A stretch of DNA of 64,000 nucleotides from an uncultured Candidatus Berkelbacteria bacterium. GTDB taxonomy: Bacteria > Patescibacteriota > UBA1384 > XYA2-FULL-43-10 > CAINNR01. A model generated the notes under the pieces. It was not told the origin of the DNA. It saw only the letters and a list, made by a program, of their open reading frames with translations, and did no database searches. This document shows, piece after piece, positions 19,355 through 57,424 of the stretch (position 1 is its first letter; every line of letters starts with the position of its first letter). The DNA lies in contig CAINNR010000015.1 in NCBI GenBank assembly GCA_903851235.1, positions 11,327 through 75,326 of the forward strand, given 5' to 3'. The position numbers were made by a program, and so were the translations under genes.

Positions 19355-19387
19355 CAAAAAAAGGCGCCTGACCCGAAGGCCAGACGC
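19355..19387 (-). terminator. rho-independent terminator of the high-GC cassette (UUCG tetraloop)
   Basis: On minus strand gcgucuggcc-UUCG-ggucaggcgc (10-bp stem with 2 GU) followed by UUUUUUU. Confidence 0.65.
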
Positions 19388-19412
19388 TTGTTACATTTGT
19401 GAATGTCGGAAT

Positions 19413-20033
19413 CTAGAAGTTGATCTTGAGGCTGCCCTCGATACGGGCGGTGTCAGTAGTCTTATTGTTCACCCCCCACAGGTAGCGGAGCGACAACGAG
19501 CTACCACCGGGGCCGCTGATCTCGACTTTCGGACCGACGCCCAGTGTATTCCCGGTCCCTTCCTGCCAACAGTTCGAGACGGCAACGCCGACTCGGACAT
19601 TGTGGCGGACCGGATGACTGACGGCCACCTGGTTCGTGTACAGCACCCAGGGGCCGTTGTTGAGGGGAATATAGGCACCACCTGCGGACTCAAACTTCCA
19701 GTCCGATCCCAGCTCGTGGTTGTACACCCAGAACGGCTCCGCGAAGAGCTGGGACGACTTGTCCCACCATGAGACATAGCCACCCAGCAGCAGTGTGTCA
19801 CTCTTGCCGGCCTTCACAGGCCAAAGGCGGCCTGCTTCGTAGACCGGGAAGTCCGGCTGAGAGAAAGACCACAGCTCCCAGCCGCTGGCATCGAGCCAAG
19901 CGCTGGTCAGACCAGCGTGCCCACCTCGGGGCATGTCCACACGCCCAAGGAGCGTGCCATCTGCGTGGGCGACGGCGGACGACAGAACCAACATCATCAA
20001 GGCGACGAACAGAACAGCGGTGCGTTGCATCAT
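19413..20033 (-). CDS. high-GC ORFan: secreted protein with signal peptide, C-terminal Phe (beta-barrel-like)
   Basis: Roughly 60% GC versus roughly 40-50% in flanks. Start at MMQRTAVLFVALMMLVLSSAVAHA with AGGGAGG RBS. Alternating hydrophobic pattern, ends ...IEGSLKINF. Inserted between rpmH and rnpA. Confidence 0.5.
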   Translation of the reverse strand: MMQRTAVLFVALMMLVLSSAVAHADGTLLGRVDMPRGGHAGLTSAWLDASGWELWSFSQPDFPVYEAGRLWPVKAGKSDTLLLGGYVSWWDKSSQLFAEPFWVYNHELGSDWKFESAGGAYIPLNNGPWVLYTNQVAVSHPVRHNVRVGVAVSNCWQEGTGNTLGVGPKVEISGPGGSSLSLRYLWGVNNKTTDTARIEGSLKINF

Positions 20034-20098
20034 ACTGGAAACGCCTCCCTCTGCTTGGTTTTTTGGTACCAAGCGACCGGATATGACTGTGTATGGGC

Positions 20099-20127
20099 AT
20101 TATAGCAAAAGTATATACTTTTGTCAA
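20099..20127 (-). promoter_or_regulatory. consensus sigma70 promoter driving the high-GC ORF
   Basis: Minus strand TTGACA (20122-20127), 17 nt spacer, TATAAT (20099-20104). Confidence 0.5.
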
Positions 20128-25160: not shown

Positions 25161-25219
25161 CTAAGTCTTCTCTAATCGAATAATGCGTCCAATGAAGCTT
25201 GTGTCTACTATCAAGCTAT

Positions 25220-25249
25220 TGACTTTTTAGTTCTCATATGCTATAATTG
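25220..25249 (+). promoter_or_regulatory. near-consensus sigma70 promoter for second high-GC ORF
   Basis: TTGACT (25220-25225), 18 nt spacer, TATAAT (25244-25249). Confidence 0.45.
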
Positions 25250-25314
25250 GGCGTTATGGTGAAGTTGCGCGAGGCAATCACCAAACAGTACGATTGAAAA
25301 GGACTGATCGAATA

Positions 25315-25914
25315 ATGAAAAAGACTTTGGTTGTTATACTGGTTCTTGCCGTACTGGCCGTTCCAGCGCTCGCGAAGGATCGCGGGCACAACGGAGGAGG
25401 GGACAAACGCGGCGGTGGAGAGCACCATGGACGTCCGGCGATCACGCTGGGCAGTGTCCTGGGCGCGGCAGCGGGTTTGTACCTGCTGTCGCGTATTGAT
25501 CGCTGCGTGCCGGAGTATATGCCGGCACCGTGCCTGCCTGTCTACCAGACGCCGGTGTACGGACCGGTGTTGCAGGATCCCGTTTGCCAGTTGCCGGGGT
25601 ACGGCGGTATTGGTCACACCGGTCGTTACGACGTGCCCTGCGTTGTCGAGTCGCAGGGCAACCGCATGATCGTCAACCGGCCCTATCGGCCGGGGACCCA
25701 GCTGACGGTGGAGGGCGAGTGGGTGACGGACCCGAACACTTTGCAGCCGCTGTATAGGAGGGAGCAGGGGTCGTTGGTTGTTGTTACATCCAACGGAGCC
25801 ACCTCTCTCTGCGACGTATTGCGTGGTGGCGCAAATCGCGGAGACGATATCATTGTCGTCGCCACCCCCTCTCCTGTGCCAGCACCGGCCACGGCACCGG
25901 TATATCAGCCGTAA
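25315..25914 (+). CDS. high-GC ORFan: secreted Cys-containing protein
   Basis: Roughly 60% GC. Signal peptide MKKTLVVILVLAVLAVPALA. Gly/His-rich segment, six Cys, Pro-rich C-terminus. Confidence 0.5.
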   Translation: MKKTLVVILVLAVLAVPALAKDRGHNGGGDKRGGGEHHGRPAITLGSVLGAAAGLYLLSRIDRCVPEYMPAPCLPVYQTPVYGPVLQDPVCQLPGYGGIGHTGRYDVPCVVESQGNRMIVNRPYRPGTQLTVEGEWVTDPNTLQPLYRREQGSLVVVTSNGATSLCDVLRGGANRGDDIIVVATPSPVPAPATAPVYQP

Positions 25915-25922
25915 GAACACAA

Positions 25923-25960
25923 GCGCTCCCCGACAGATCATGTCCGGGAGCGCTTTTTTC
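25923..25960 (+). terminator. rho-independent terminator
   Basis: gcgctccc-cgacagatcatgtcc-gggagcgc followed by TTTTTT. Confidence 0.65.
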
Positions 25961-26001: not shown

Positions 26002-29000
26002 TTAGAATCCGATATGGGTATAATTTGTTGTTTGCGGATTGACCCAGAGTCCGGCGCGGGAGCCACTGCAACCGCCGACTTTGGAACAGATAACATCATC
26101 CACCTTATATTGCCAGTAATCAACATCCTCTTGGCGGCCGGTCATAATTTGCGACGGAATCGCCAAGGCGTCGCCGGTTCGTTCCGATAATGCCAACACA
26201 TCACCGGCCAAAGTTTTCGCCTTGTACTGGGCGGCGGTAATATAGCCGGACTTTTTCGCCGTCGGATCCAAGCCATTAAAGGTGCCGAGATTCCCGTTGT
26301 CGGAAACAGAAGGATCGGGTTTGGCATCAACCCCGGGATAGTAACCGTCGGCGGTACAGGTGACCTCGGTCTTGTAAACACCGAATAAATTCATTAGGAC
26401 AAAGATTGCGACCGAAATCGGATTAAAGCCGGTGATAAGCATTGAAACCAACATCGAACCGGTGCCGGGAACCAAGCCGACAGCGGTTTCAAATTGGCCG
26501 ATCTGTTTTGAGAAAACCAAATTGACGACGAAAGCGATGCCGGCGGATTCAACATTTGACAGGTTCCCCTTGGCGTCAGCTAATTGTTTATTTGCTGTCA
26601 CGAGGTTTTTCGCTTCTGCAGCGCCCCCGGTTGCAGCATCTGCGGCACCGGCTACAGCCATATTGGCACTGGAGATAGCGGCGTTGGCGGCAACAATTTC
26701 TCGGTAGGTCGTATAAATAGTGAATGCTGTGCCCGATGGCAGACCGAGCGCTTTATCGGCCCAACCGGTGATCTTGCTGATGCCCCAATCTTTGTAAATA
26801 TTTTCCAGGCTTTTTATCGGCGTGCCGACTCCCGGGATGGTGATATCGGCGGTGAAATTGCCGTTTTTCAAGCCGTAAGCCAGGGCGGTGAAAGTTCCCG
26901 GTTGGAGCTGAAACCCGAGTAAATTGCCGAGTTTGCCATCGATCCAACTGTCAAGATTCGCCATTTTGCCGTTTTTGACCATTGTATCGAGATCAAAACC
27001 CTTTGGATTCTGGAAAAATGATGTCAGTGAGTTATACAGATCAATTCCAAGATCAAGCTTATTGTAACTGACACCGTTAAACGATAGAGTGCCGAGAGCA
27101 TTTTTTGCGTAACTCATCAACATTGCTGTTCGCTGGACACCGTTGCCGGAGTACATGGTTTTAACGAAGCCGGCGGGGATATTTTGATCAACTTGGTAAA
27201 GTTTGGCATCAGCCATTCGCCAGAGCAGATTGTTTTTTGTTACAGTGTCGGCCTGTTTTCGAGCCGCTTCCTGTACGCTGTTTAAATCCTCAATTGATTG
27301 AGAATTTTTTTGTACCGCCGCCATCATCGCCACCGGATCAACCGTCGGATTCGCCGGATAGTCTTGGGCAAAGCCGGTGCTTGCAGCATCGTAGGCAGCA
27401 TAAGTCGAATAACTCGAAGCTGTTGGGTTGGTCGGGTCATAACAAGTATTCCCCATTGCCGTTGATCCGGGGGCGCACTGACTGGCATATAAGGTTGTCG
27501 CCGGTGAACCGGCCATCTCTGCCGTCTCGGTTACCGACGCGATCGGGTTCGCTTTGTTCAAATTTGTCAGATAGTTGTTGGTTGCGCTGTCAACGTAAGA
27601 TTTTTCTAACGTCGGGTTACCCATGATCGAATAATAGATATCTTCATATGTAATGCGAAAATATGCCGGTAGATTGGCGGTGGTTGAACCGTTGTAAATG
27701 TGCAGGGCTTCCGCCGATTTAACCGCAGCCGTGATCTCCAAAACTCGCAAATCGCCATGAACCAACATGTTGGTGCTTTGCAAAATCAAGTCCTGTGTTT
27801 TCGGCATACCGGCGTAATTTCCACTGCCCGGACTTGGGGTGGCGATGATACCGATTTTCGACAGGTAATCGCCGACCAATTGCTCGCCGATCTGTTGCCC
27901 ATAATACTCCCAGCGGTCGGCACTAGAGCTTATTGATATGGCACCAAAATGACCGGTGGTCGGTATTGAGTCACTAGCGCGAAAAGTTGTCAGGCCGGTT
28001 TTCCAACCGTCGGAATATGGAAGAGGCCCACCGAGGCCGATGTAGGCGGCGGTAAATGAGGCGCCGGCGGTTGGATCAAGACCGAGTGAATTATCGAGTT
28101 TCTCAATACCGGAGAGCAACAACGATGCGGCAGCTTGCTCCGGATTGGTAATAATTCGGCCGATTGTGCCGGCGGAAAGCCCGAGTTTGCTGTCAAGATC
28201 AATGCCAAAAACTTGGGAGAAGTTATTAAAGATTGCGCCGTAATCACATGAAGTGGCGGCCGAAGTCCCAATTATTGTCTTGCTGCCGCAGGCTTTGATT
28301 CGCTGGAAGGTGTTTGTAAAACCATCAATCTTGCCCAGCGTTGCGGAATCGATTCCCAGTAGTTTGCCCCACGTATCGATGCCTGTCGGTGTTAAGCCGA
28401 TCACGGTGTTGGCGACATCGTGGCGGTAGTCGTCGGGAGTTATTTTTGAAGTCAGAAGTTGCTGAGTCGTTCCGGCCGGAAGTCCGAGCTGGGAGTCGAT
28501 GCCACTGACCTGATTTAAAAAGTTGGTCGTTTGATAGAGAGTAATACTTTGTGTCGGGTTTGAGGTGGAAAATGCGTCGGCTGAACTACCGTTAAAAGCT
28601 AAATTTAGTGTTGAAGTGATATTTTTTTCAAGCGCCGGATTCGTCAGGGCGATCGGGGCGATATTAGCGGTGCTGGCGGGATAGTTAACGTGACTTTCGG
28701 CCAGTTGATATTGGCTGGCGATTGATTGCTCGGCGATTGAAGCGGCCAACGATAAATTTGTAATCGCATCCGGGGTCAGAATTTCCGACGGTGGCAATTG
28801 GAATGCCCGAGCGAAGGCCACCGGGCCAATATTATCCATCAACTCCTGCAAGGTTGAGCCGCGGAAGGAGTTTGACGGCAAGTTGAGAACCTTCTCGATT
28901 TTCGCCCCACCGATATTTTCATAAATGTTTCCTGAGAGAGAAACAGTGCCGAGACCGAGCATACCGCCGACAAAATTGGCACCCAAATTCGCCAGCGAAC

Positions 29001-32000
29001 AGTTACGAATAATTGACGACGTTGATTGAATTATATTAATAACCTGATTCGAGCCGACTCCAAGTTGACTCTCGAGATATTTTGAGCCGATTTTATCAAC
29101 CGCTAGGGTGCCGTTTCCGGAGAGCAGATCGAAAATATCGCTAGCATCAATTTTCATTCCGGCAACGGTGACACCCATGCCGGCGAAGACTGCAGTCGTA
29201 ATTCGGCTTTCAGCCGTTCGCTTGCCGATTGTCTCCAAATACGGATTGATCGGTTTCTGACTCAAATTGGCGAGTAGATCTTTGCGGTTGAAAAGGTTTT
29301 GCAGCGTAGTGACGGGGATGTTTAATTTGTTGCTGATATTTGCTAGTTCATCACTTGAAAACGCCGCCGCTTTTGATGGAGTGGAGAGAAAACTGTTCAA
29401 CTCGCTCTGATAAGTTGCGGCTGTTGCGGCATCAAAAGAGTTTGGAACGGCCGGGTTGGAAGCCAAACCCTGGGACAAGGCTTTGACAAAGTCGACTTGC
29501 GAGCTCGCGTTGCTTTCGGCGTAACTTCTGGCTTCATTGATGCTCGGAAATGCGTGAGTGCCACTGGCGTCGGCATAAACATAGGAGTTATCGACTATCT
29601 GACTGCTGACAGAGAAAGTAATACCGTTTTGTTTTGTATAACTGAAACCGACCGGGCAACTGCCGGTAGTCGTCGGGCTGGCGATCTGCGAAGTGAAGCC
29701 GTTATGGGCGTTATATGTTATCAGGTTAGCGTAATTTTGATTCAAGCCATTAGTCAAACTTTGAGCGCTGGTTTTGACCCGAGTGAAAGTGTCGATGACA
29801 TTTTGGGGTAAATTTAATCGTCCGGCGATCAGCTCGGCGTCGGAGCTGCCCAAAGTATCGGTTGAAACTGACTGTCCGGAGAGAAATTTCAAACTTGTTC
29901 CGGCCGGTAGTGCCAATGAAGTATCTAGATTGCCGGCGGCCAGCGCCACCTGCGAACCGCTAGCGAATGAGCTGGCACCGGTGATTGAAGAAATATCAGC
30001 CGGCAAATTAAGCGCTCTCATAACTTGGGCCCCGGCTTCGGCCGAGGAGATGCCCCAAACCTTGCTTACATGATCGCGAACGTCGGAAAGTGTTGCCAGT
30101 GTGCCCGGAGTGCCACCCTGAAAGAAGTTTGGCGGCAGATGTAAGGTTTCCTCCAGTTGGGCTTGACCGATAGATTGGAAGAAGGCGTCTTGCCCATCAA
30201 TATTTGACGAGTCGGTTTTATTTTTAATAAAAGTGGCGTAATAGTAAATTGAATTTTTCGGCAGGTCGAGTGAACTTTCAATTTTGTTGGCACCGATCGA
30301 AATTAGAAAATTCTCCGGTGTCATCTTGCCGGCCAGCATCAGAGCTAAAGAGGCGGCTGAGATCTGGGTGCCGGAGCTGGCCGAGGTTGAATCGTTGGTA
30401 TTTTGAACGCCGATGCTGCCGAGATCGGAGAGTTGGAGCGATGAAATAGAGGATTGCGGTTTACCGGTCAAAATTTCCTCGACTGCCTGGGCAATATCGG
30501 CAAAATCAAGCGCGGTGGTGTTGGCTTTATCTTTTAAACTTTGGTTGGCGGCGACAGAGTTTTTCAGAGCGCCTGAGGCCTGGTCGAAATTAACCGCCGA
30601 GTTTCTAGTGACACTAATTGCTTGAATCCCGGATGATAGGCCATTGGTGTCAGCTTTTTCCACCTCTGATTTGGCACTAGCGATGTTGGTTTTGAAAATC
30701 CCGATATTGGCATCGCTGCTGGTAACACCGGCCCAATCACTTTGAATTTTTGCTGTTTTTGTCTGAATCAACTGGATTCTGGTTTTGTAAAAATCGACAG
30801 TTTTCAGAGCTGAGGTAATCTCCGGGTGCTGGGCCAAATAAGAGGCTTCAGCTTGTTTTACCGCCGAAGAATTTGCGATTCCGTTGTAGAGCGCGGTCTG
30901 GCCAAGACTTTTCAGCACCGGTTGCGGATTGACATTCGAGCAGCCGAATAGGCGGAAAAAATCACCACGTGAAAGACCGTAAGTTGTCATGAATTGACTT
31001 TCCGGCAAAGTCACGACTTTCGTCGTTGTCGTTCCGGCGATGGTGATGGTTACTGTTGCCACTGATGGAACGGCGCAATCGCTACTGGTAAGTTTGTTAT
31101 TAAACCACTGTACTAATGCGGCCCGAACATCACTGTCGCCATTGAAAGCTTGGGCCAAGGTGTCGGCGCCGATCTGTTGAAAGTTCGATGCCAAGTTTGT
31201 GCCGGCCAAAATGTCGGTCATTCGGGCGTTGGCGCTGGCGGTGGTGATACTGTTTGATGTACTATCGACTGATAGTCTGGCGGCATTGGCGGCGGCGGTT
31301 GATGAGGCGAAAGAGTAAACACTATCAGCCAAAATCTTGTTGGCAACCAGCGTCGCATAGGCATCCGGTGGTAGAGCGCCGGATTTGTACTGAGCGGAGT
31401 AATTATTTAACCCCAGTCCAAGTTTTTCATCAACACTGGTCGGATTTTGATAAACCAAATCAATTTTTCGCTGACCGGCGACGGTTTCAAGTTTTTTAAA
31501 ATTAGTATCGGTGCCGAACGCTCCTGCCGGCAAAGCCAAATCATTTTCAATCGTTCGCCGTCCAATTACCAACCTCAAACTCGTCGGATCAGTGATTGAA
31601 GATGACAGCGTGTTGGTCGGCAGATTGAGCGCCGACTCGACATGGCGTTCGCCGGTATTAATCAAAATTTCATTCAAATTATTGCCCTGAATTGAGCCCC
31701 AAGGCAGATTTAACTTCTTCTCCAGTTGGGCTTCGCCGATTTTGGCTTCCAAGTCATTTACGTCGGCCAAATTGGCATTGATAAAAGCTTGCCGCGGTAA
31801 ATTCAAATCATCGGCCAGCGCCATGCCGCCGATTTTTTTGATTGTGTCGGCAAAGTCCGTGCCGGAAATCGCCATATTCGGAGAATTTAACATTTCGCCG
31901 ATCAGCGATTTTCCGATTAAACCGACGATGTCGGAGAAGCCGGCTTTCGATAAATCGGTCGTCGAATCAACGGATATTCCCAACTGATCGAGTAAATCGA

Positions 32001-33246
32001 TGTAATTTCCACTTGCCAGTTGTCGAAGATTGGCATTTAGGCTGGAATAGTCTGGTGGTGGCGAGGTATCATAGCCGGAGGAGGTTTGCCAGGCAAGACT
32101 TATTGGTGTCGCCGGTAATTTTGTTTTATCATCAGAGCCGATTCGTTTCTTCTTTATCAGTGTGCACTTAATATTGTCTACGGCGGAAATGTCAACCGCT
32201 TCACCCTTATAATGAGCGGAGAGATTACTGGCGGTTTCGGCGTCGGAGAAAACCAAATCGCCCTGACTGGCTCCGGCGGAATCGATAACCTCGGCTTGTC
32301 CGGTCGCTGAAGCGATTGTTGGATCGGCGCTGAGAGCATTCTTATCTGCGCTGGAGACATCGCTAACTGTGGTCAGCGAGGATTTACTTGAGCTGGTGTT
32401 CTGAGCGATCTGTTGATAAATTGCCGTTGATTCTCTTGAAGTTTGTTTGGCATCGCGGTTGTAACCGTTACGAATTCGCAAAACCTTGATCAATTCGTGA
32501 CCGGCGCCACCTTGATCCTTTGGTGTAACCAGATTAACCAAAAGTTCCAGAACACGGCGATCAATTACAACTTTATTTTGGGCGTTATCAATTATCGCAT
32601 TGACTGAAGTTTGGTCGTATTTCAGCATGTCGGCGGCTTGATTTTGATCGACACCGGCGATGCAGGCGAAATTCGGCAGATCATTTTTCAGATTCGAAAC
32701 GATGTTGGTTCGCGCAGTATTCTGGGCCGTGGTTATCAAATTTTGGTAGCCGGTCGGGTCGGCGGTTTTCATTGTTGCAATATCAGCAATCGTTTTACCG
32801 CTCGCCGCTGCCAGTGAATCATCATGATTGGCAAAGTCAGGAATAACATTTCCTAAACAGGATAATGTTCGAATATCCTGCAAATCCGAGGGGTTGAAAA
32901 CCAGTTTAGGTGAGGAGGAAATGTTTTCTGTCGCCCAGAGAAACCCACCGATGCCACCATTTTCGCCCTCCAGGTAGTTGTTGCTGGTAAATTGCATTAG
33001 TGACTTAACCGATGCTGGCAAATTATCATTGATCGTTGGTACATTTATTCCAACATCAATCCCACCAACTTGGTCACCTTCACTATCAATTGCTTCTATC
33101 GGGTTTTGGTCTTGATTATCATTGGACACGGCGGGAGAATCAACCGGATCGGCGTGAGCACTTTGAATATACACAATTAAATTCAGCGGCAAAATAATCG
33201 CCAAAATGTTGAAGATGACTAAACTTTTTTTCAGAAAAGGTTTCAT
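26002..33246 (-). CDS. giant (2414 aa) secreted, C-terminally membrane-anchored surface protein with degenerate xLxLP repeats
   Basis: Signal peptide MKPFLKKSLVIFNILAIILPLNLIVYIQSAHA; about 15 instances of (L/A)(N/G/A/H/D)LP(x)(N/G/S) repeats (DLNLPRQ, KLNLPWG, ALNLPTN, SLALPAG, RLNLPQN, VLNLPSN, LGLPAGT, ALGLPSG ...); hydrophobic segment near C-terminus; start overlaps the M23 gene stop by 1 nt. Confidence 0.7.
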   Translation of the reverse strand: MKPFLKKSLVIFNILAIILPLNLIVYIQSAHADPVDSPAVSNDNQDQNPIEAIDSEGDQVGGIDVGINVPTINDNLPASVKSLMQFTSNNYLEGENGGIGGFLWATENISSSPKLVFNPSDLQDIRTLSCLGNVIPDFANHDDSLAAASGKTIADIATMKTADPTGYQNLITTAQNTARTNIVSNLKNDLPNFACIAGVDQNQAADMLKYDQTSVNAIIDNAQNKVVIDRRVLELLVNLVTPKDQGGAGHELIKVLRIRNGYNRDAKQTSRESTAIYQQIAQNTSSSKSSLTTVSDVSSADKNALSADPTIASATGQAEVIDSAGASQGDLVFSDAETASNLSAHYKGEAVDISAVDNIKCTLIKKKRIGSDDKTKLPATPISLAWQTSSGYDTSPPPDYSSLNANLRQLASGNYIDLLDQLGISVDSTTDLSKAGFSDIVGLIGKSLIGEMLNSPNMAISGTDFADTIKKIGGMALADDLNLPRQAFINANLADVNDLEAKIGEAQLEKKLNLPWGSIQGNNLNEILINTGERHVESALNLPTNTLSSSITDPTSLRLVIGRRTIENDLALPAGAFGTDTNFKKLETVAGQRKIDLVYQNPTSVDEKLGLGLNNYSAQYKSGALPPDAYATLVANKILADSVYSFASSTAAANAARLSVDSTSNSITTASANARMTDILAGTNLASNFQQIGADTLAQAFNGDSDVRAALVQWFNNKLTSSDCAVPSVATVTITIAGTTTTKVVTLPESQFMTTYGLSRGDFFRLFGCSNVNPQPVLKSLGQTALYNGIANSSAVKQAEASYLAQHPEITSALKTVDFYKTRIQLIQTKTAKIQSDWAGVTSSDANIGIFKTNIASAKSEVEKADTNGLSSGIQAISVTRNSAVNFDQASGALKNSVAANQSLKDKANTTALDFADIAQAVEEILTGKPQSSISSLQLSDLGSIGVQNTNDSTSASSGTQISAASLALMLAGKMTPENFLISIGANKIESSLDLPKNSIYYYATFIKNKTDSSNIDGQDAFFQSIGQAQLEETLHLPPNFFQGGTPGTLATLSDVRDHVSKVWGISSAEAGAQVMRALNLPADISSITGASSFASGSQVALAAGNLDTSLALPAGTSLKFLSGQSVSTDTLGSSDAELIAGRLNLPQNVIDTFTRVKTSAQSLTNGLNQNYANLITYNAHNGFTSQIASPTTTGSCPVGFSYTKQNGITFSVSSQIVDNSYVYADASGTHAFPSINEARSYAESNASSQVDFVKALSQGLASNPAVPNSFDAATAATYQSELNSFLSTPSKAAAFSSDELANISNKLNIPVTTLQNLFNRKDLLANLSQKPINPYLETIGKRTAESRITTAVFAGMGVTVAGMKIDASDIFDLLSGNGTLAVDKIGSKYLESQLGVGSNQVINIIQSTSSIIRNCSLANLGANFVGGMLGLGTVSLSGNIYENIGGAKIEKVLNLPSNSFRGSTLQELMDNIGPVAFARAFQLPPSEILTPDAITNLSLAASIAEQSIASQYQLAESHVNYPASTANIAPIALTNPALEKNITSTLNLAFNGSSADAFSTSNPTQSITLYQTTNFLNQVSGIDSQLGLPAGTTQQLLTSKITPDDYRHDVANTVIGLTPTGIDTWGKLLGIDSATLGKIDGFTNTFQRIKACGSKTIIGTSAATSCDYGAIFNNFSQVFGIDLDSKLGLSAGTIGRIITNPEQAAASLLLSGIEKLDNSLGLDPTAGASFTAAYIGLGGPLPYSDGWKTGLTTFRASDSIPTTGHFGAISISSSADRWEYYGQQIGEQLVGDYLSKIGIIATPSPGSGNYAGMPKTQDLILQSTNMLVHGDLRVLEITAAVKSAEALHIYNGSTTANLPAYFRITYEDIYYSIMGNPTLEKSYVDSATNNYLTNLNKANPIASVTETAEMAGSPATTLYASQCAPGSTAMGNTCYDPTNPTASSYSTYAAYDAASTGFAQDYPANPTVDPVAMMAAVQKNSQSIEDLNSVQEAARKQADTVTKNNLLWRMADAKLYQVDQNIPAGFVKTMYSGNGVQRTAMLMSYAKNALGTLSFNGVSYNKLDLGIDLYNSLTSFFQNPKGFDLDTMVKNGKMANLDSWIDGKLGNLLGFQLQPGTFTALAYGLKNGNFTADITIPGVGTPIKSLENIYKDWGISKITGWADKALGLPSGTAFTIYTTYREIVAANAAISSANMAVAGAADAATGGAAEAKNLVTANKQLADAKGNLSNVESAGIAFVVNLVFSKQIGQFETAVGLVPGTGSMLVSMLITGFNPISVAIFVLMNLFGVYKTEVTCTADGYYPGVDAKPDPSVSDNGNLGTFNGLDPTAKKSGYITAAQYKAKTLAGDVLALSERTGDALAIPSQIMTGRQEDVDYWQYKVDDVICSKVGGCSGSRAGLWVNPQTTNYTHIGF

Positions 33247-33248
33247 AA

Positions 33249-34673
33249 TTACGGAGTTTTATTTAAAACGCTCAAATCACGGACGTATAAATACTCGCCG
33301 ATAACATTGTATTTTTTATTACTGCTGTGAAAATTGGCTACGTCTTCGGCGGTTGTGGTAACGGCGTGATTATCACAAAGAAGTTCGAAGTGAAGGTGAG
33401 GGTGATTCAGACCGGTCCAACTTGCGCCAATTTTTTGACCGACGGTTACATCGTCACTGCTGGTTACACTTTGCATATGGGCGTACACCGCTCTAAAGGT
33501 TTTACCGACGCTGTCTTTGCCTTCAATATATATGTAGTCGCCGGAGTGGTTCCCGCGCTTTGTAATATGACCGGAGAAGGCGGCGTAAACCGGTGTGCCA
33601 CCCGAATCGCCAATATCAGTGGCGTCATTGGTGCATTTGTTATTGTTGATGAATGTGCCATGTCCGGGAACCGATTCGCATCTCATAAACGATCCACCAT
33701 GCAATGTGCTGTTAAATCCCTTTACATCTTTTGGACTGATTGGATAGGCGGTTTCTCCGCTGAAGTGAAAAGGAACCGTGGCGAAGATATCCAAAAGTTG
33801 CCCGACGGCGGTGACGATTTTCAGGCCGGCGGCATTTTCTTTCGCATCGCCTTGCGGCAGCGTTTGAAAAGCTTTGACTAGTCCGACAATTTCATCAATC
33901 TTTGCTGAAATTTTTGCTTTGGTTGTAGAGTCATAGTTGCTTAGAGGCGGCGAATTCAGATCATTTTTCATTGCCGCCAAGTCACCTTGCAATCCGGAGA
34001 GGACATCGGCTGTTAATGACTTGGTGACATCGCTGTTTCCGCTCAATGCCAAAATTTTGGAAATCCATGGGCGATCATGCAAGATATCGGTGGCTTCTAC
34101 TGGGCTTGAACCGTTGACGTTCGGTGTTTGGAGGGCGCGAATAAGGAAAACCAGTGCGACGACAATGATAACTATTCCGACGATGGCGAGCAAAATCGGT
34201 AACCAATATCCGGCCGTTGTGGCGGCGATTTTAGTTCCGATTTGAGCCGCCCATTTTGTTGCTGATCCAACGGCTTTTTTCACCGCATCGCCAGCGACAT
34301 CGGCTAGCGGTTTTGCGGCGCGTTTAGTCGCTGTTTTTTTCTCATCTTCGGCTTGTTCTTTGGCTTTTTCTTGCGCCGTTTCGCGCGGCTGTACCGCCGG
34401 ACCACCGGGTTGAGCCTCCTTGACCGCTGCTGGCGTAAAAACATCATCCGATTTAAATTCCGGCACCTCGGCTTGCTGAATTTGCTCCTCAGGCGTGCCC
34501 GATTTTACCTTTGCTGTTTCATTTGCATTATCATCGGTTTTCGGTTGATGAGCATCTTCGATTTCTTCTTCATCAATATCAAAATCGGCCGAAGTTTCCG
34601 TCGGAACATTAATTTGAGCCCGTTTAATATCGTCGGCGACCCTCCGTTTGTACTGATCTGGCGACTCAGCCAC
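33249..34673 (-). CDS. membrane-anchored M23 (LytM-type) metallopeptidase
   Basis: Acidic disordered cytoplasmic N-terminus, one TM, C-terminal HxxxD (HGGSFMRCESVPGHGTFINNNKCTND), DIGDSGGTPVYAAFSG and HLHFEL motifs. Confidence 0.7.
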   Translation of the reverse strand: MAESPDQYKRRVADDIKRAQINVPTETSADFDIDEEEIEDAHQPKTDDNANETAKVKSGTPEEQIQQAEVPEFKSDDVFTPAAVKEAQPGGPAVQPRETAQEKAKEQAEDEKKTATKRAAKPLADVAGDAVKKAVGSATKWAAQIGTKIAATTAGYWLPILLAIVGIVIIVVALVFLIRALQTPNVNGSSPVEATDILHDRPWISKILALSGNSDVTKSLTADVLSGLQGDLAAMKNDLNSPPLSNYDSTTKAKISAKIDEIVGLVKAFQTLPQGDAKENAAGLKIVTAVGQLLDIFATVPFHFSGETAYPISPKDVKGFNSTLHGGSFMRCESVPGHGTFINNNKCTNDATDIGDSGGTPVYAAFSGHITKRGNHSGDYIYIEGKDSVGKTFRAVYAHMQSVTSSDDVTVGQKIGASWTGLNHPHLHFELLCDNHAVTTTAEDVANFHSSNKKYNVIGEYLYVRDLSVLNKTP

Positions 34674-34723
34674 TGATCCCTCCGTTTCAAATTAGTCGAA
34701 TGAGTCTAATCGGACCAATTGGA

Positions 34724-36049
34724 CTAATTTGAAATTAATTTAACAAAATACAATTTTCCGGCCGAAGTGAAAACCGCTCCAGATTTGTCATCACTCAAAG
34801 AAACTTCGCTGACCGTTGAATTGCCTTGACCGGCAAAGTAAAAATCGGAAGTTTTCCCATCAATTAAACCTACAACTATCATTTTACTCTCCGCGGAATC
34901 GATTGGCAAGAAAATTTGATCCGGATTTTTCCATAATTTGACATCCGAAGCGCGAGCGGCGATTCCCAAATCACGATTATTACTGCCATCTGAGTTTATT
35001 ACCGAAAGAGTTTGTCTCAGCGGATTTTGCGGATTGTTGGAAAATGTCGAGTAAATAATTTTTTTGCTGTCAGAGCTAAAAACCGCTTCTTTTTGGTTGC
35101 CGGCTGTGTTTAGTGGCGTGACTACTTTGGTATAGACATCCATCAGATAAATTTTGTTTTGATTGAAATCAGCGTTTCTTGGAATAATCAGCAGATATTG
35201 TGAATCGGGTGAAAAGGCGAGGTAGGGGTTCTCGATGTTAAGCTCGGCCAAATTTGCCGCTCGGTAAATGTTTTGATTACTGGCATCGGAAAAAATCAGT
35301 GATCGCTCACCACCGGGCGGGGCGTAATAATAGGCGAGGCGCGAACCATCGGGGGCCCAAACTATGTCGCCGACATTGTTACTGAAAAGCGTCTCGCTTT
35401 GATTGATAAAATCGTACTTTTTGAAATCCAATAAATTAACTGTTGTGCCGGTTTTTACCAAAATCAAATTTTTGTCCGGCGACCAGATTATCTTTGATTT
35501 CGGGTCGATCGGTGTCGAGGTGATTTGCTGGTTAGTAGCAACTGTCGCACCGCCGGAATTATCAATATCCAGAGTTGATAAATAGAATAAATTATTGCTA
35601 AGGCTCTGATAAAAAACCTTGTTATCGGAAATCGCGATGTGAGCGGCTGAGTCAGCGATTTTATTCGGCTCCGGCGCTTTGACTAAATCAATTTTTTTTG
35701 AATAATTTTGTCCGCGTGATAATGTGATTTCCTCTTTGAAGCCGACGTAATTATCGGCGTCGACGCGCAAAGTGTGTTTACCCAAACCGGTGACGAAACT
35801 GGCCGAGCCGTTCAACAGCTGGGCCGGTGAATTGTCCAGTGTGACGATGGCGTTTGTCGGTGCGACTTCAACCGAGACTTTGGCGTGGATGAAAAAGAGA
35901 AAATAAATCAGCGCAGCAAGGAAAATAAAAAATCCGATCAAAACCATCCGGAATATTAGAGTTTGTTGTTTTTGTTTTATCTTTCCCATAATATTTACTT
36001 CGGGCATCCGGGAGTTGTATCTGCTGGTAATAATTTGAAATCTGGCCAA
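34724..36049 (-). CDS. membrane-anchored PEGA-domain plus TolB-like (PD40/WD40-like) beta-propeller protein
   Basis: N-terminal TM; PEGA-like VEVAPTNAIVTLDNSPAQLLNG..GKHTLRVDADNYVGF; repeated SPD/APDG blades (IIWSPDKN, IVWAPDGS, LAFSPDSQ, VFSSDSKK). True start probably a downstream Met (complement 36007 or 35989), since the listed start overlaps the upstream gene. Confidence 0.5.
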   Translation of the reverse strand: MARFQIITSRYNSRMPEVNIMGKIKQKQQTLIFRMVLIGFFIFLAALIYFLFFIHAKVSVEVAPTNAIVTLDNSPAQLLNGSASFVTGLGKHTLRVDADNYVGFKEEITLSRGQNYSKKIDLVKAPEPNKIADSAAHIAISDNKVFYQSLSNNLFYLSTLDIDNSGGATVATNQQITSTPIDPKSKIIWSPDKNLILVKTGTTVNLLDFKKYDFINQSETLFSNNVGDIVWAPDGSRLAYYYAPPGGERSLIFSDASNQNIYRAANLAELNIENPYLAFSPDSQYLLIIPRNADFNQNKIYLMDVYTKVVTPLNTAGNQKEAVFSSDSKKIIYSTFSNNPQNPLRQTLSVINSDGSNNRDLGIAARASDVKLWKNPDQIFLPIDSAESKMIVVGLIDGKTSDFYFAGQGNSTVSEVSLSDDKSGAVFTSAGKLYFVKLISN

Positions 36050-37413
36050 GATATCTGACTGGTATCATAATTTCCACCGTATTGGAAGTGCATTGTGTCG
36101 CAAGTGCAGAAAAATTTTCCACCCCAAAAGAAACCGTCTTTTTGGAAAATATCACTAACAGTTTTTGGTATATTAGTCGAGCAGCTAGAACTATCCCTTG
36201 CTTGACCGCCGGAGATTGAACTTCGTTTATTGTTTGGGTTTTGGTTAGGGTTTATATCAATTGCTGTCCCGAATCCATGTGGGCTGATTGTGCCTTTGCG
36301 ATTGGTATTTTCTCTAACACTAGTTCCTTGAACGTCGCTAAAATTGTAAGTTACACCAGCGGCTTTCAAATCGGCCTGAACTTTATCAAGCGCCGAGGTT
36401 ATTGCTTTGTTGACTCCACCGGAGATGTTGTGACCCATGAACGAGTAAGAAACAATATTTTTTCCCGGGGTGCCGACGGCATTCTGAACATCTGTAATAT
36501 TTTTCCAAATTCCAACTTGGTCATATTGCCCCAAACTGGTTCCGACGGTACGAAAATCCATTGAGGAGTTGGAGCCGGAGGTGGCACCACAATTATCAGA
36601 CCCTCCGGTTGCACCGGAACCGGCGGCTGTAGTAAATCGCCATCTCGTTTTTGCGTCGCTCTCGGCGCCCAAACTTGTCATTGCGATTTGCGATATGTCA
36701 AGACCAACCCTATTAGCCGGTCGTGCATTATTCAAGACATATCCCGAGTCAGTATAGACATATGGTCCGGAGTCGATGACTGCCAGCACCACAGTTTTCC
36801 CGTTATATTCAACTTCAATTCTTGGGCACTGGTTAACATTTCCATGGCAGGCGACTGGTATGCTTGTTAGGGGAAGCGCAGCAAAGTATTCGGTCGGTCG
36901 ACTACAGCCGGTTGGAAGACCGCTTCTGCCGACGCAGTTGTCGACATCATCGGTGCATGTCATACACTCCTCCATGTCTTTAGCTGATGATAATGCCGTT
37001 GAGTCTTTATGGCACCATTTATACTTCATATCTCGGTTATGTTGGGATTTATCACATTTGCCGCCAAAGGTTGTTGTCACTATGTTTTCATGCCAATCGG
37101 TTGTAGCGCCAGCGGGAATTGCAACTGTTCCGGACAAACCACTGTTCATGCAAGCTTGGGCGCTGTTGCCATTTGGATCGCCGATTGAGCGAACGTAAAA
37201 AGCGATTGCAGAACCCCAAGCGGCGGCTGCCGACAGACCCATAAAAAGAACAACAAGAATCGAGACGATTATTGCTTTTCGCCACTTATTCTTATCACCA
37301 CCTATGGTGAAAAAGTTTTTGACTTTATCAATTGGGTTCGAGGATTGGCCACCAGTGGTGGCATTTGGCGTTTCGTTTTGTTCTGTTGTTTCATCAGGCA
37401 TAAAATTTACCAA
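35995..37413 (-). CDS. bifunctional cell-wall hydrolase: RlpA-like DPBB domain + M15 (LAS-family) peptidase domain
   Basis: TM anchor; PTEYFAALP...CPRIEVEYNGKTVVLAVIDSGPYV...GLDISQIAMTSLG matches the RlpA/DPBB core (V.V.N..NGKSVVVRVNDRGP); C-terminal HGFGTAIDIN and WGGKFFCTCDTMHFQY match M15 peptidase metal-binding motifs. Confidence 0.6.
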   Translation of the reverse strand: MVNFMPDETTEQNETPNATTGGQSSNPIDKVKNFFTIGGDKNKWRKAIIVSILVVLFMGLSAAAAWGSAIAFYVRSIGDPNGNSAQACMNSGLSGTVAIPAGATTDWHENIVTTTFGGKCDKSQHNRDMKYKWCHKDSTALSSAKDMEECMTCTDDVDNCVGRSGLPTGCSRPTEYFAALPLTSIPVACHGNVNQCPRIEVEYNGKTVVLAVIDSGPYVYTDSGYVLNNARPANRVGLDISQIAMTSLGAESDAKTRWRFTTAAGSGATGGSDNCGATSGSNSSMDFRTVGTSLGQYDQVGIWKNITDVQNAVGTPGKNIVSYSFMGHNISGGVNKAITSALDKVQADLKAAGVTYNFSDVQGTSVRENTNRKGTISPHGFGTAIDINPNQNPNNKRSSISGGQARDSSSCSTNIPKTVSDIFQKDGFFWGGKFFCTCDTMHFQYGGNYDTSQISWPDFKLLPADTTPGCPK

Positions 37414-37480
37414 TTACTTTCAATCAAAATATAAAATATATATGATAGATTTCTGATAATCTCGAAATGATTTTGAAAAA

Positions 37481-39274
37481 TTAATTATTCGGGTAAAGCG
37501 AATCACATTTGGCTTTTTGCTGGGTTAACGAATTGGTCTGCGTTCTTGCCACCAAATCCCAGATAGGAATTTTGGAAAGATCCGGTTTTTGATTGGTGTA
37601 ATTTGTCCAAATTATCTGGCATTGCTCAAGCGTCGGGTTACCGGTTGAGCCAAACCATGTGAGAGGGTTATACCAAACTGTTTGGCTGGTTGACGATGGA
37701 GTTGTTGTGGCCGCTTGGCTGGTTGACGACTGGACCAAAGTTGTCCCAGTCGCTGATGGCGACAAAGTGCTACCGGAGGTTGGAGAACTGGGATCCATCA
37801 GCCCAGGTTGAGCAACCGGCGACGTTGTCGTGGTTGAGACGCTGGCGGTGGTTTTTGCTGCCCCACTCTTAATATTGACCAGTCCAATGTAGTCGTTATA
37901 ACCGTGACCAATTGCTCTTTTTTTGTAAATCGACACACCCCATTTGTAAAGTCTGGCTTTGTCGTCGTCGGTCAGACCGGCGGTATTTAGCGGGATGGAT
38001 AGAGTTTTTGGTAGATTGTCATAATCAATAATAAACGAACCAACTTCCTTGAATGTCAGCGGCGACTTAAAATAACCGCCGTAACCCAGGTCGTGCCACG
38101 GAGTGGCATTGATAACGACACCGAATTCAGTTTTGGCATTGACCTTTGGTGTTGCCCCATTCACTTTGGACAAACCTTTTGGACTCGGGTAGGCATCGCC
38201 GATCGTAATATTCAGTGTATTGCCACTTACGGTCATCGAAGTTTTATCATAACCGCTGGCGCGAAAATATCCCAAATAACCATCTTTGTAAAAAGTGTTG
38301 TTCATGTAAGTCGAATTCATCGCCATCATTACTTTGTCCAGCGCCAAGATACAGGTCATTTCGGTGTAAAGTTGCGTGCTTTGTCCGTTAACCGCGGTTA
38401 CTTTATGGTCGGCGCCACGGGTGATATCAATAGAATTTACATTGGTTTTGTAACCGGAAGCGCTAGAACTTACGGTATATTTTCCGTTCGGTGCGGCAAC
38501 TTCAGCCACCCAATAATTGCCGAAATTATAAGTTTTCTTTACAGCTGATATGCCGCCAGTTGCGTTGCTGGCGGAAATAAAATGTCCTTTGTCAATTTTG
38601 TTAGGGTTTTTAAAATTGGCGTCGTAACTTTCCGGGTCGACTGGAGCGACCGTGCCGCGAACCGCATAATCGGTGACAATTACTTTTATGCCGGAGTTAT
38701 CGGGAACAGCGTCTTTTAACTGCGTGCATTTCCCTGACATTGGGATGCCAATACAACCGTGAGTAGCGCCAGAAGAAAAATGAATACCTAAATGGCGACA
38801 CTTTTTCCCGTCCTTAGTTTCTTGATTAGCGGGGCAAACCGGATCACCGCCAAAAGTTGGGTTGCCGTCTAAGTTTAAGAACCATTCTCCACTTAAAGCT
38901 CCGGTCAGAGGTTTGGTCCAATCCGCGGCGCTGTAGACACCCAACGATGTCATACAAGTGGCATCAGTAGGAGCTCCTGATGTTCCGCATCCGGCAATAC
39001 TTGGTTGATAAATACTTTCTTTAATTTTTGTTGGCGAAGTGCCGACATTAACCGGAGTGATAATAATGGGACCGCTGCTATTATAGCCAGTTAGCGCACC
39101 CTCGCCTGTTTGAGGATTTATGGCCACAACAATCAACTGAATGTTTCCGGCATTTGTACTTGGGGACAATGTATCGGCGGCGATTTTATTGAGATAAATG
39201 TATATTCCCAGAGCAATTAATCCCAAAAAAACTACCGACAAACCGACAAACAAGAAAACTTTTGATCGTTTCAT
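37481..39274 (-). CDS. membrane-anchored L,D-transpeptidase (YkuD)-like domain protein with Ser/Thr-rich C-terminal region
   Basis: TM anchor; RHLGIHFSSGATHGCIGIP resembles the YkuD catalytic H...S.GC(I/V) motif; C-terminal low-complexity S/T-rich tail. Confidence 0.4.
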   Translation of the reverse strand: MKRSKVFLFVGLSVVFLGLIALGIYIYLNKIAADTLSPSTNAGNIQLIVVAINPQTGEGALTGYNSSGPIIITPVNVGTSPTKIKESIYQPSIAGCGTSGAPTDATCMTSLGVYSAADWTKPLTGALSGEWFLNLDGNPTFGGDPVCPANQETKDGKKCRHLGIHFSSGATHGCIGIPMSGKCTQLKDAVPDNSGIKVIVTDYAVRGTVAPVDPESYDANFKNPNKIDKGHFISASNATGGISAVKKTYNFGNYWVAEVAAPNGKYTVSSSASGYKTNVNSIDITRGADHKVTAVNGQSTQLYTEMTCILALDKVMMAMNSTYMNNTFYKDGYLGYFRASGYDKTSMTVSGNTLNITIGDAYPSPKGLSKVNGATPKVNAKTEFGVVINATPWHDLGYGGYFKSPLTFKEVGSFIIDYDNLPKTLSIPLNTAGLTDDDKARLYKWGVSIYKKRAIGHGYNDYIGLVNIKSGAAKTTASVSTTTTSPVAQPGLMDPSSPTSGSTLSPSATGTTLVQSSTSQAATTTPSSTSQTVWYNPLTWFGSTGNPTLEQCQIIWTNYTNQKPDLSKIPIWDLVARTQTNSLTQQKAKCDSLYPNN

Positions 39275-39312
39275 AATCTCCCCAAAATTAATTTAATTTA
39301 TTCATAATAATA

Positions 39313-40815: not shown

Positions 40816-40821
40816 ATTTTT

Positions 40822-42969: not shown

Positions 42970-42980
42970 TTCAAGTTGAT

Positions 42981-43769: not shown

Positions 43770-43932
43770 GCCGAAATTGATCGCGGTGACATCAAGAATC
43801 AGGCGGTACGAACCGTCCTTTAGGATGACAATTCCGTCCTCAACGCCGGCAATCTCCAGATTCTCCTGCGTCGATGCGGCAAGTTTTGTTTTGCTTGAAG
43901 CCAGAATCCCCTCCTTAGCTAATCAAATCAGT

Positions 43933-44349
43933 CTAATTTGGACTAGTCCGTCCGCGTTTATCTATTACACTTGCCAGCTTTTCAATATCGGCACGCGAAT
44001 ATCGTTTGTTGGCGTACGGATCGGCAACTCTCTCAACTTTCGGCTGATAAATCTCAACCCGGACATTATTTTCGCTTTTATGCCAAAGTCTGGTTTTCGG
44101 GTTGGCGGCATAGGCCATGGCGTTTTTCAGAAACTGACCAAAGGAGCGACCATTGACTTTAACGAAACAGATGCAAAATGTCAGGATAAAAATCGGCAAA
44201 GCCAGAACCCAGTTGATCGGGGATGGAAGTGAACTAATGGCGATATAACCGGCGCCGCCACCGAGAACGGCATAGACAAACTGGACCATCGAAAGTGGTC
44301 CCAAAATTTTATCCTCGATATCGATTTTTTGTGGCACTTTGAACTGCAT
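43933..44349 (-). CDS. PrgI/VirB3-like small two-TM T4SS protein
   Basis: 138 aa, conserved MQFKVPQKIDIEDKILGPLSMVQFVYAVLGG start and two adjacent TM helices as in the PrgI family; position upstream of VirB4. Confidence 0.4.
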   Translation of the reverse strand: MQFKVPQKIDIEDKILGPLSMVQFVYAVLGGGAGYIAISSLPSPINWVLALPIFILTFCICFVKVNGRSFGQFLKNAMAYAANPKTRLWHKSENNVRVEIYQPKVERVADPYANKRYSRADIEKLASVIDKRGRTSPN

Positions 44350-44370
44350 TGTTTTACGGTTCCTTGCTAA

Positions 44371-44400
44371 ATGATCTTTCGGAGTCTACCGAAGGTGACC
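44371..44400 (-). repeat. 30-nt conserved upstream motif (copy 2)
   Basis: Reverse complement ggtcaccttcggtagactccgaaagatcat; 27/30 identical to 3383..3412; 22 nt upstream of the PrgI-like start. Confidence 0.5.
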
Positions 44401-57418: not shown

Positions 57419-57424
57419 ATGGAA

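Follow-up and report, generated by a model that had tools for sequence, protein, structure and literature searches.

The replication-origin region of a Berkelbacteria chromosome raises the question of whether a gene that looks foreign in its base composition must also be foreign by descent. The window considered here is a stretch of 64,000 nucleotides from contig CAINNR010000015.1 (GCA_903851235.1) of an uncultured Candidatus Berkelbacteria bacterium, which belongs to the candidate phyla radiation (CPR). It carries five small, GC-rich open reading frames (ORFs), here called c1 to c5. The focus of this analysis is c2, whose unit occupies positions 25219-25959 of the forward strand. In a preliminary description, the five were taken for uniform cassettes, and it was suggested that they could be recently acquired host-interaction factors, a family of mobile ORFan cassettes, or non-native insertions. 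We lean, with somewhat better than even confidence, towards a different reading, in which c2 is an ordinary chromosomal, monocistronic gene of Berkelbacteria that was not recently inserted and whose high GC content is maintained. Sequence comparison identifies both c1 and c2 as old genes of the lineage, which occupy conserved slots and behave alike in GC.

The anatomy of c2 is that predicted for a single-gene transcription unit, as it fits a sigma-70 promoter (-35 and -10 elements separated by 16-18 nt) and an intrinsic terminator (a hairpin followed by a run of T). The promoter (25219..25247, +) comprises the -35 element TTGACT (25219-25224), a spacer of 17 nt, and not of 18 nt as first described, and the extended -10 element TGcTATAAT (25239-25247); with 11 of 12 matches and the TG present, it is indeed near-consensus. 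The leader of about 67 nt (25248..25314, +; GC 0.46, native-like) starts with GGGYGTTATGGTGAA, which is common to the window and the L038 unit, and contains a modest ribosome-binding site (RBS), AAGGA (25299-25303), 11 nt 5' of the ATG. The coding sequence (CDS; 25315..25914, +) specifies 199 amino acids. It is followed by a terminator (25921..25959, +) which is as strong as had been proposed, with the stem GCGCTCCCCGAC / GTCCGGGAGCGC, whose 15-nt arms (25921-25935 and 25941-25955) are 93% complementary, and then T6. The high GC content of the ORF was also borne out, at 62.2% compared with 43.7% for the window; it reaches 0.68, 0.50 and 0.69 at the first, second and third codon positions (GC1, GC2 and GC3), and c2 is the sole 600-nt stretch of the window with GC above 0.535. 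The rise is limited to the body of the ORF, with promoter, leader and spacers at 0.29-0.46 GC. The unit and its flanks are 100% identical in contigs of at least five samples, and because these contigs reproduce the c2 junctions at 100% identity, c2 is not a chimera or an assembly artefact. An antisense ORF of 247 amino acids covers the whole unit; dual coding with this ORF was ruled out, as it is interrupted in the relative L031.

The family to which c2 belongs is small. Three relatives were found among 5.8 billion clustered proteins, and a full search with a hidden Markov model (HMM) of 1.84 billion representatives gave 11 family matches including c2 itself. A metagenome scan gave three matching loci, one of which (L032) is identical to L010. 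The homologues with a named source (P0003, P0007 and P0012) all come from Candidatus Berkelbacteria bacterium, and every relative of c1 or c2 that is named, or whose DNA was retrieved, is from Berkelbacteria; no member of either family was found outside Berkelbacteria contexts in the two protein collections, and the viral contigs searched contained no relatives of c1 or c2. The contigs of GCA_002779135.1, GCA_037142675.1 and GCA_026397235.1 keep the gene order of the window around the homologues, namely rnpA, rpmH, dnaA, dnaN, recF, a gene for a 50-amino-acid membrane peptide, dciA and then a convergent operon. The c2 unit lies after dciA and convergent with the gene for a giant protein in L006, L009, L011 and L038-L040. 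Units in the same slot occur in at least three other lineages, comprising a CG08-type lineage (L006, L011, L031), L009/L010 and L038-L040. The core proteins of the relatives (DnaA, DnaN, DciA, Xer, Mur ligase) are 74-87% identical to those of the window, and the relatives are about equally distant from it. The signals of the unit are shared as well: the extended -10 element and the first leader bases are kept in the L038, L009, L006 and L035 units, and the terminator shares the core CCCCGACAGA with its homologues in the L009 and L038 units. A distant paralogue, P0015 (L035), sits between a T2SSE and a T4SS_pilin gene, convergent with the pilin operon.

Throughout this divergence, the composition of the two genes has stayed high. 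The c2-family genes examined have a GC content of 0.59-0.65 and a GC3 of 0.66-0.75, with flanks at 0.40-0.52; even against the L009 background, the most GC-rich one seen (flanks 0.51), the gene stands out with 0.63. The c1 orthologues have a GC3 of 0.78-0.80 compared with 0.32-0.45 for core genes. Identity at four-fold degenerate sites between genomes is 0.24-0.40 (near chance) for the cassettes and 0.33-0.50 for core genes; the four-fold sites are saturated between these genomes, and both c1 and c2 are more diverged between genomes than core genes are. Because GC stays high despite saturated four-fold sites, the GC of c1 and c2 appears to be maintained and not to be the fading signature of a donor. 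At the turnover of the core process (496 core four-fold sites), about 42% of a GC deviation would be kept per lineage, and c1, had it evolved by the core substitution process, would have to descend from an ancestor with a GC at four-fold sites (GC4) of about 1.08; on this model, slow amelioration of c1 and c2 is not tenable. The pattern is not confined to these two families. In L012, L017, L035 and L038, 20-40% of the genes seen have a GC content of 0.50-0.62, and several families (198 amino acids, 201/211 amino acids, MFS) hold similar GC3 across lineages, with saturated synonymous divergence (dS) in the 201/211-amino-acid and MFS families.

Recent variants run in the other direction. Among near-identical CG08-type strains, 18 changes from G/C to A/T (S->W) and one in the reverse direction (W->S) fall inside c2, where local dS is 0.038 compared with 0.005 in the adjoining gene. 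L006 (3159-3510) is set apart from L011 and L031 by closely clustered substitutions, for the most part G->A and C->T, and by deletions of 3 nt (3211-3213) and 18 nt (3238-3255). Most of these changes fall in the Pro/Gly/Tyr linker of c2, and the same strains show four differences over 1.5 kb of the flanking gene. The cluster could reflect a hypervariable linker, templated or complex mutation, or an imported tract. The S->W excess fits a mutation supply that is biased towards AT and later purged, and it also fits a locus that is locally variable or recombining.

The second of the old genes, c1, forms a unit on the reverse strand (19364..20127, -) with the promoter TTGACA-17-TATAAT (20127-20099), the CDS (19413-20033) and a terminator (19387-19364). 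Its product is a Trp/Gly-rich protein of 206 amino acids with a signal peptide (GC 0.612, GC3 0.76). The gene is flanked by rpmH (20179-20313, -) and rnpA (18991-19326, -), a pair which is usually tight and which is split by a variable interval in these Berkelbacteria. Orthologues of c1 with 61-65% identity are found in the dnaA/rpmH-rnpA interval of two further lineages (L012, L017), and its ratio of nonsynonymous to synonymous divergence (dN/dS) is 0.19; c1 is missing from the interval of L038. In the window, the interval (19327-20178) contains c1 only, in 0.9 kb. In the relatives it extends over 4.6-7.6 kb (L012 8508-15638, about 7 kb, with no rpmH gene listed there; L017 4504-12081; L038 121-4679) where hypothetical genes of high GC are accompanied by those for an MFS transporter, a HicAB pair and TrmB regulators, the last of these of native GC. 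The interval has the appearance of a hot spot beside the origin, oriC, at which genes are gained and lost. The idea that c1 is an outer-membrane-type barrel ending in Phe was ruled out, as this last residue is not kept and two orthologues end in ...IKLD.

Taken as a set, the five ORFs are compositionally deviant, as originally proposed. Their GC contents are 0.61 (c1), 0.62 (c2), 0.58 (c3), 0.54 (c4) and 0.565 (c5), compared with 0.33-0.49 for all other ORFs of the window. When the GC3 expected from each protein sequence and native codon usage is subtracted from the observed value, the excess is +0.26, +0.21, +0.18, +0.12 and +0.13, respectively, and thus beyond the native maximum of +0.08 in every case. 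The weakest GC outlier is c4, which lies in the 3% tail of 186-nt windows, with c3 and c5 in the 0.1% tail. About half of each GC excess is supplied by amino-acid composition, the GC-rich proteins being enriched in Gly, Pro, Arg, Val and Trp and depleted of Lys, Ile, Phe and Asn. The codon shifts are strongest in two-fold boxes (TTC 0.90 vs 0.33, AAC 0.78 vs 0.38, CAC 0.82 vs 0.54) and favour GAG, CAG and AAG too. Native codon usage is itself unusual for a genome of 44% GC (GCC 0.41, CCG 0.50, GGC 0.36): the native Ala, Pro and Gly boxes prefer G/C endings and the two-fold boxes A/T endings, and the GC-rich genes differ from native ones mainly in the two-fold and the Leu/Val/Thr boxes. The typical accessory DNA of the window deviates the opposite way, with a GC content of 0.34-0.37. 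Among the genes of its AT-rich blocks (3966-5918, 13634-14927 and 62059-62952) are those for an AbiEii-type toxin and its partner, a nucleotidyltransferase and a DUF4143 ATPase, along with RhuM and Fic/Doc fragments, so that the non-core genes of the window fall into two classes of opposite composition.

A common cassette design, with consensus promoters and strong ribosome-binding sites, had been regarded as striking, and this was overstated. Each of the five units has a promoter-like site and a hairpin, so that the notion of individually promoted and terminated ORFs holds in outline, with near-consensus promoters only in c1 and c2 (matches: c1 12/12, c2 11/12, c4 10/12, c5 9/12). Native genes reach the same quality, with 11-12/12 promoters at 3449, 14984, 17080, 24564 and 62999 and equally strong terminators at 10132, 56752, 59240 and 63233; units of promoter, ORF and terminator are the normal gene style of this genome, and the five do not amount to an engineered-looking set. 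The five ORFs do sit between housekeeping genes and lack annotated relatives, as none of their products matched Pfam, NCBIfam, PHROG or PADLOC. The products are unrelated to one another. The proposed search for shared flanking motifs gave no flanking or boundary repeats common to the five units, only matches of chance length (12-17 nt), and no transposase or phage matches border them, the only recombinase being a housekeeping-type Xer gene beside c3; a family of mobile cassettes is not what these observations describe. The single tRNA of the window (16682-16772) was the only RNA found by Rfam, both at the gathering threshold and at E <= 1 over all five units, and no unit was matched.

The c2 product is, by model and alignment, a putatively exported protein restricted to Berkelbacteria with a beta-barrel of about 80 residues that resembles the C-terminal domain of FlgT. 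Its predicted Sec-type signal peptide (amino acids 1-20, ALA|KD), assigned by inspection and kept in the family, agrees with the preliminary description; the N-terminus MKK-TLVVILVLAVLAV-PALA|KD fits a basic n-region, a hydrophobic h-region and an AxA motif by eye. The protein has five Cys residues and not six, of which Cys109 and Cys166 are conserved in the family and invariant in its closer members. Judging from the family alignment, the signal peptide is followed by a Gly/His/Arg-rich spacer, a conserved hydrophobic helix ITLGxVL..LYLLSR (amino acids 43-60), a Pro/Tyr/Cys-rich linker (61-104) that varies even among strains, the barrel domain (about 105-182; nt 25627-25860) and a Pro-rich tail C-terminal of the barrel. 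The hydrophobic character of the helix holds for the c2 subfamily, distant members having a degenerate form, and many protein columns are invariant across homologues of about 50% identity. With an alignment of 10 sequences, AlphaFold2 (AF2) modelled a six-stranded barrel with a predicted local distance difference test (pLDDT) score of 84-95 over residues about 111-180; the barrel is described from this model, an alignment of four sequences having given a pLDDT of 45. The best structural matches of the barrel in Foldseek are FlgT (E 2e-4), the F1/FliI N-terminal barrels and small 'FlgT C-terminal domain' proteins, with FlgT-C-like proteins in BFVD matching at E 5e-6 to 1e-3; superposition with FlgT (8z5n, 3w1e) gives a root-mean-square deviation of 3.3-3.4 A over 86-88 columns. 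Sequence-profile searches of the PDB with the c2 and c1 families returned noise only. Like FlgT of the Vibrio flagellar H-ring, c2 combines a predicted six-stranded barrel with probable export and with a gene that lies beside those of an envelope-spanning machine, and its barrel has the same general fold as the N-terminal barrels of F1-ATPase and FliI. It differs from FlgT in that there is no match at sequence level and the E-values are weak for a generic fold, no flagellar genes are evident in the window, and the barrel is preceded by a signal peptide, a spacer of low complexity, a hydrophobic helix and a Pro/Tyr linker.

The protein would probably act outside the cytoplasmic membrane, and its genomic setting suggests where. 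The convergent neighbour operon, which lies outside the cassette (26002..45831, -), encodes a giant protein of 2414 amino acids, an M23 peptidase, a PD40/PEGA protein, an M15 peptidase, two CarboxypepD_reg proteins, a TraG/VirB4-like ATPase and others. In L038 (GCA_026397235.1, 10001-10486), the gene in the c2 slot combines an unrelated, equally GC-rich C-terminal module with a promoter, leader, signal peptide, ITLG..LYLLSRID helix and terminator that are homologous to those of c2. L038 also encodes a giant protein (47% identity) and an M23 peptidase (36%) of a divergent type, and in genomes with the barrel module of the window the giants are 62-68% identical to that of the window. Because the module type co-varies with the giant protein and the convergent placement is constant, a functional link between c2 and a surface apparatus that resembles a type IV secretion system (T4SS) is suggested, and c2 may be an accessory or anchor of this neighbouring giant-protein/T4SS-like apparatus. 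CPR episymbionts presumably contact their hosts via such surface or T4SS-like structures, and a role of the presumably exported c1 and c2 proteins as host-interaction factors, part of the initial proposal, is possible. Several features of the neighbourhood are recorded here in their own right. The giant-protein gene (26002-33246, -) has no Pfam domain and an intermediate GC4 (0.55-0.59, core 0.42-0.47), and its product evolves fast, with 47-68% identity where core proteins have 74-87%. In L009 (1511-1999) and L010 (816-1304), a second GC-rich gene directly follows the c2 orthologue; it encodes 162 amino acids with a signal peptide, has a GC3 of 0.75, and possesses its own TTGACA/TATGAT-type promoter and a terminator. 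Upstream, between recF and dciA (24564-24802, +), an 11/12 extended -10 promoter precedes the conserved gene for the 50-amino-acid membrane peptide (24650-24802), which is present in L038 and L008 at 82-86% identity.

As to the force that would hold c1 and c2 GC-rich against a mutation supply biased towards AT, the folding of the c2 transcript provides a hint of selection at that level. When the CDS was compared with versions in which synonymous codons were permuted among identical amino acids, the folding z-score of c2 was -5.1/-5.6 in the window, -11.7/-13.0 in L006 and -10.3 in L011, compared with a mean of -0.7 for 14 native genes. The sense strand of c2 folds at -300.8 kcal/mol and the antisense strand at -255.8 kcal/mol. 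Other GC-rich genes over-fold too, including a 316-amino-acid gene (z -6.0), a 289-amino-acid gene (-3.6), the second GC-rich gene of L009 (-3.2) and c5 (-3.1). We tentatively prefer selection on the transcript as the mechanism, although this preference is weak. Such selection would favour G/C-ending codons and intramolecular pairing, and would render the mRNA of this putatively exported envelope protein very stable and slow to be degraded or translated. A more general version, in which Berkelbacteria and perhaps other CPR bacteria keep small accessory and envelope genes at a separate GC-rich equilibrium through a gene-specific force, is conceivable, though we would not expect it to hold; the force would then most likely be selection for GC-rich, paired and long-lived mRNAs, or else intense local GC-biased conversion. 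As a separate observation, the CG08-type c2 genes (L006 3029-3535; L011 851-1336) contain five perfect short-loop hairpins of 7-12 bp, where 0.6 are expected from synonymous shuffles, and the motif that is conserved best, IVVNRAYQPGTQLL, is encoded by one of them, a nested palindrome of 10+7 bp.

In order of weak preference, transcript selection is followed by GC-biased gene conversion (gBGC) and then by re-import from a GC-rich reservoir. If gBGC were responsible, the slot would be a recombination hot spot for a rapidly evolving surface protein, in which repeated conversion tracts that favour G/C alleles hold the GC of the ORF and no transcript selection is required. We consider this unlikely, although much of the variation would suit it: the C-terminal module is swapped in L038 with homologous promoter, N-terminal half and terminator, local dS in c2 is about 7-fold above that of the flanking gene in near-identical strains, the allele types of the giant protein are incongruent with core gene distances, c1 is patchily distributed and absent from L038, and the recent S->W excess stands alongside long-term GC stability. 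GC is likewise raised at every codon position and through the choice of amino acids, as a base-level fixation bias predicts. The effects of gBGC that are reported for bacteria, however, shift GC3 by a few points, far below the 25-35 points seen here in a sharp-edged tract of 600 bp, and neither the excess of sense over antisense folding nor the AT-rich promoters and leaders a few bases away are predicted. The module swap and the incongruence of allele types show that the slot exchanges alleles and would also be expected under serial replacement, in which the families reside in a GC-rich pool (a CPR clade, a host or a mobile element) and are repeatedly re-imported into one slot by homologous recombination via conserved flanks, which would make each copy young in the genome that now carries it. 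This idea, which seems to us more doubtful again, could draw on the rpmH-rnpA interval of the relatives, a multi-gene GC-rich island whose spacers are GC-rich too (0.47-0.56), and on an amino-acid composition that resembles a GC-rich proteome. It is difficult to reconcile with the restriction of both families to Berkelbacteria across clustered proteins, full HMM search and viral contigs, with AT-rich, native-like promoters and leaders that are homologous across lineages, and with c2 standing out even from the L009 background; c1 and c2 are also more diverged than core genes, so that their copies are no recent exchanges between these genomes.

The remaining explanations fare worse. Recent acquisition of foreign or mobile ORFan cassettes whose GC has not yet ameliorated is improbable for the set as a whole. 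Deviant composition and the lack of annotated relatives initially spoke for it, and it is plausible for c3-c5 only, given that c3 and c4 are singleton clusters of this species and that c3 is absent from the same junction in a CG08-like relative. For c1 and c2 it is refuted, at the level of sequence comparison, because of synteny plus saturation: their homologues are syntenic and equally GC-rich, synonymous sites are saturated and GC3 is unchanged. No direct repeats, tRNA or integrase mark the boundaries of the units, the five products are unrelated, no donor was found for c1 or c2, and the accessory DNA typical of the window is AT-rich. The earlier proposal could have been overturned by same-site orthologues together with normal composition; the orthologues exist for c1 and c2, and the GC and codon usage lie outside the normal range. 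Absence from the same site in relatives, which recent insertion would predict, was observed for c3 (in L031 and L006) and for c1 in L038, and not for the c1 and c2 slots in general. Translational selection, in which the codon bias of very highly expressed genes causes the high GC3, is very improbable. The strongest shifts are towards C-ending NNY codons in two-fold boxes, and c1 and c2 have near-consensus promoters, as such selection would have it, but the normally highly expressed genes are AT-ending (GC3 of rpmH 0.28-0.35, HSP20 0.38, pilin 0.31), and neither the gain of GAG, CAG and AAG nor the amino-acid shift is predicted. Least credible of all is an artefact or a non-coding origin, be it an assembly chimera, a GC-rich structured RNA or a shadow ORF. 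The long antisense ORF, the strongly folded c2 transcript and the well-folding c5, which is on record nowhere as a gene, might point in this direction; for c1 and c2, this explanation is refuted by the identity of at least five independent assemblies across the c2 junctions, conservation at protein level with many invariant columns among homologues of about 50% identity, the low dN/dS of c1 and the confident AF2 barrel of c2, as well as by the broken antisense ORF in L031 and the lack of an Rfam match at E <= 1.

Several observations weigh against the view that c2 is a resident gene with maintained GC, or against parts of it. Folding does not follow GC throughout: L009 c2 has a z of -1.4, the L038 unit +0.1, c1 about -2 and c3 and c4 about 0, and all of them are GC-rich regardless. 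In L006 the antisense strand folds nearly as well as the sense strand (z -10.9), which fits palindromes at the DNA level or templated mutation as well as it fits selection on RNA. The hairpins of c2 hold no conserved position across orthologues, and a fixed-register covariation test of the hairpin over the AGxYLLSR codons in four sequences was not significant and not better than shuffles. The S->W excess consists of few changes (about 20), which are clustered in a low-complexity linker and could stem from one complex event; other loci have only 0-21 single-nucleotide polymorphisms per comparison, too few for a test of W->S against S->W. The amelioration estimate comes from a simple F81-type calculation, and the ancestral GC4 that it requires is barely above 1. 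For the protein, the structural match involves a small barrel of generic type at weak E-values, from which membership of a family does not follow, and no sequence-level family match was obtained in Pfam (E <= 0.1), NCBIfam or PDB profiles. The signal peptide and topology were assigned by eye, and the second hydrophobic helix, if it were a membrane anchor, could place the barrel in the cytoplasm.

The three smaller ORFs are a different matter. They are unrelated to each other and may be of younger origin, so that for them the proposal of recent acquisition keeps some plausibility. The c3 unit (53987..54261, -) contains a CDS for 61 amino acids without a signal peptide (53993-54178), the Shine-Dalgarno (SD) sequence AAGGGGG and a terminator (54005-53987), with a promoter-like site whose spacer, at apparently 15 nt, is off-range. 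Its neighbours are a Mur ligase gene (54262-55617) and a xerC/D-like gene (53004-53942), and it is absent from their junction in the CG08-type relatives L031 and L006, where the Xer gene is present. The c4 unit (57398..57661, -) has the promoter TTGACT-17-TATTAT (57661-57633), the SD sequence AGGAGG, a CDS for 61 amino acids (57425-57610) and a terminator (57418-57398). Both c3 and c4 are recorded only in this species, as singleton clusters. A homology query with concatenated c3, c4 and c5 gave no matches even though c3 and c4 are in the collection, and is not evidence of absence. In the c5 unit (58870..59200, -), the promoter TTGAAC-17-TATATT (59200-59172) is followed by an SD sequence, an ATG and a possible CDS for 81 amino acids (58883-59128), whose stop codon is contained in the terminator stem (58891-58870). 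No assembly on record has c5 called as a gene. Its transcript folds beyond shuffles (z -3.9/-3.3 for dinucleotide and -3.1 for synonymous shuffles), with an excess that is seen for the sense strand (z -2.8) and not for the antisense strand (-0.45), and c5 may be a small RNA or an uncalled gene for a small protein.

Known systems offer partial parallels. In the Lawrence-Ochman amelioration framework, compositionally atypical islets and ORFans are reportedly taken as recent horizontal transfers. The five ORFs resemble such islets in being short, deviant in GC and codon usage, without annotated homologues and placed between housekeeping genes, and the rpmH-rnpA interval is a variable multi-gene island in the relatives. 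In contrast to such islets, the five ORFs depart towards higher GC from an AT-rich genome whose typical accessory DNA in the window is itself AT-rich, c1 and c2 keep their synteny and an undiminished GC3 across saturated synonymous sites, and neither a donor nor boundary repeats or mobility genes were found. Integron gene cassettes are likewise small single-ORF units, and a tyrosine recombinase gene adjoins c3. Here, however, the units carry individual promoter-like sites and are dispersed over 40 kb with no array, and their hairpins are terminators with a run of T and not attC sites. The recombinase is of the conserved XerC/D type, and its gene occupies the same position in relatives without c3. 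Finally, Hershberg & Petrov 2010, Hildebrand et al. 2010 and Lassalle et al. 2015 are said to have found GC above mutational equilibrium, through selection or biased conversion, as genome-wide or recombination-correlated shifts of a few percent. The present case is similar in that recent variants are mostly G/C->A/T and the long-term composition is GC-rich, a signature on which those studies reportedly relied, and differs in that a GC3 gap of 25-35 points exists in single small genes and persists across species. The pattern was not described in the literature that was searched for classes of GC-rich genes in Berkelbacteria, Patescibacteria or CPR, and the combination of persistent GC-richness and over-folded mRNA in c2 is apparently undescribed.

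It is routine to take atypical GC and codon usage as a sign of recent horizontal transfer and to date the transfer by them. For c1 and c2, this composition-based inference fails. If the same applied genome-wide, composition-based calls of horizontal gene transfer and of contamination in CPR metagenome bins would be systematically misleading, and if a separate GC equilibrium were real, foreign-looking composition would be a regulated, heritable trait and no clock of horizontal transfer. The force that holds single genes 25-35 GC3 points above their neighbours would then need explaining, and, if the composition is maintained, the system would be a natural test case for transcript-level selection versus biased gene conversion. 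For the biology of these bacteria, the c2 family adds a conserved protein, predicted to be an exported beta-barrel, to the little-understood surface/T4SS-like apparatus of CPR.

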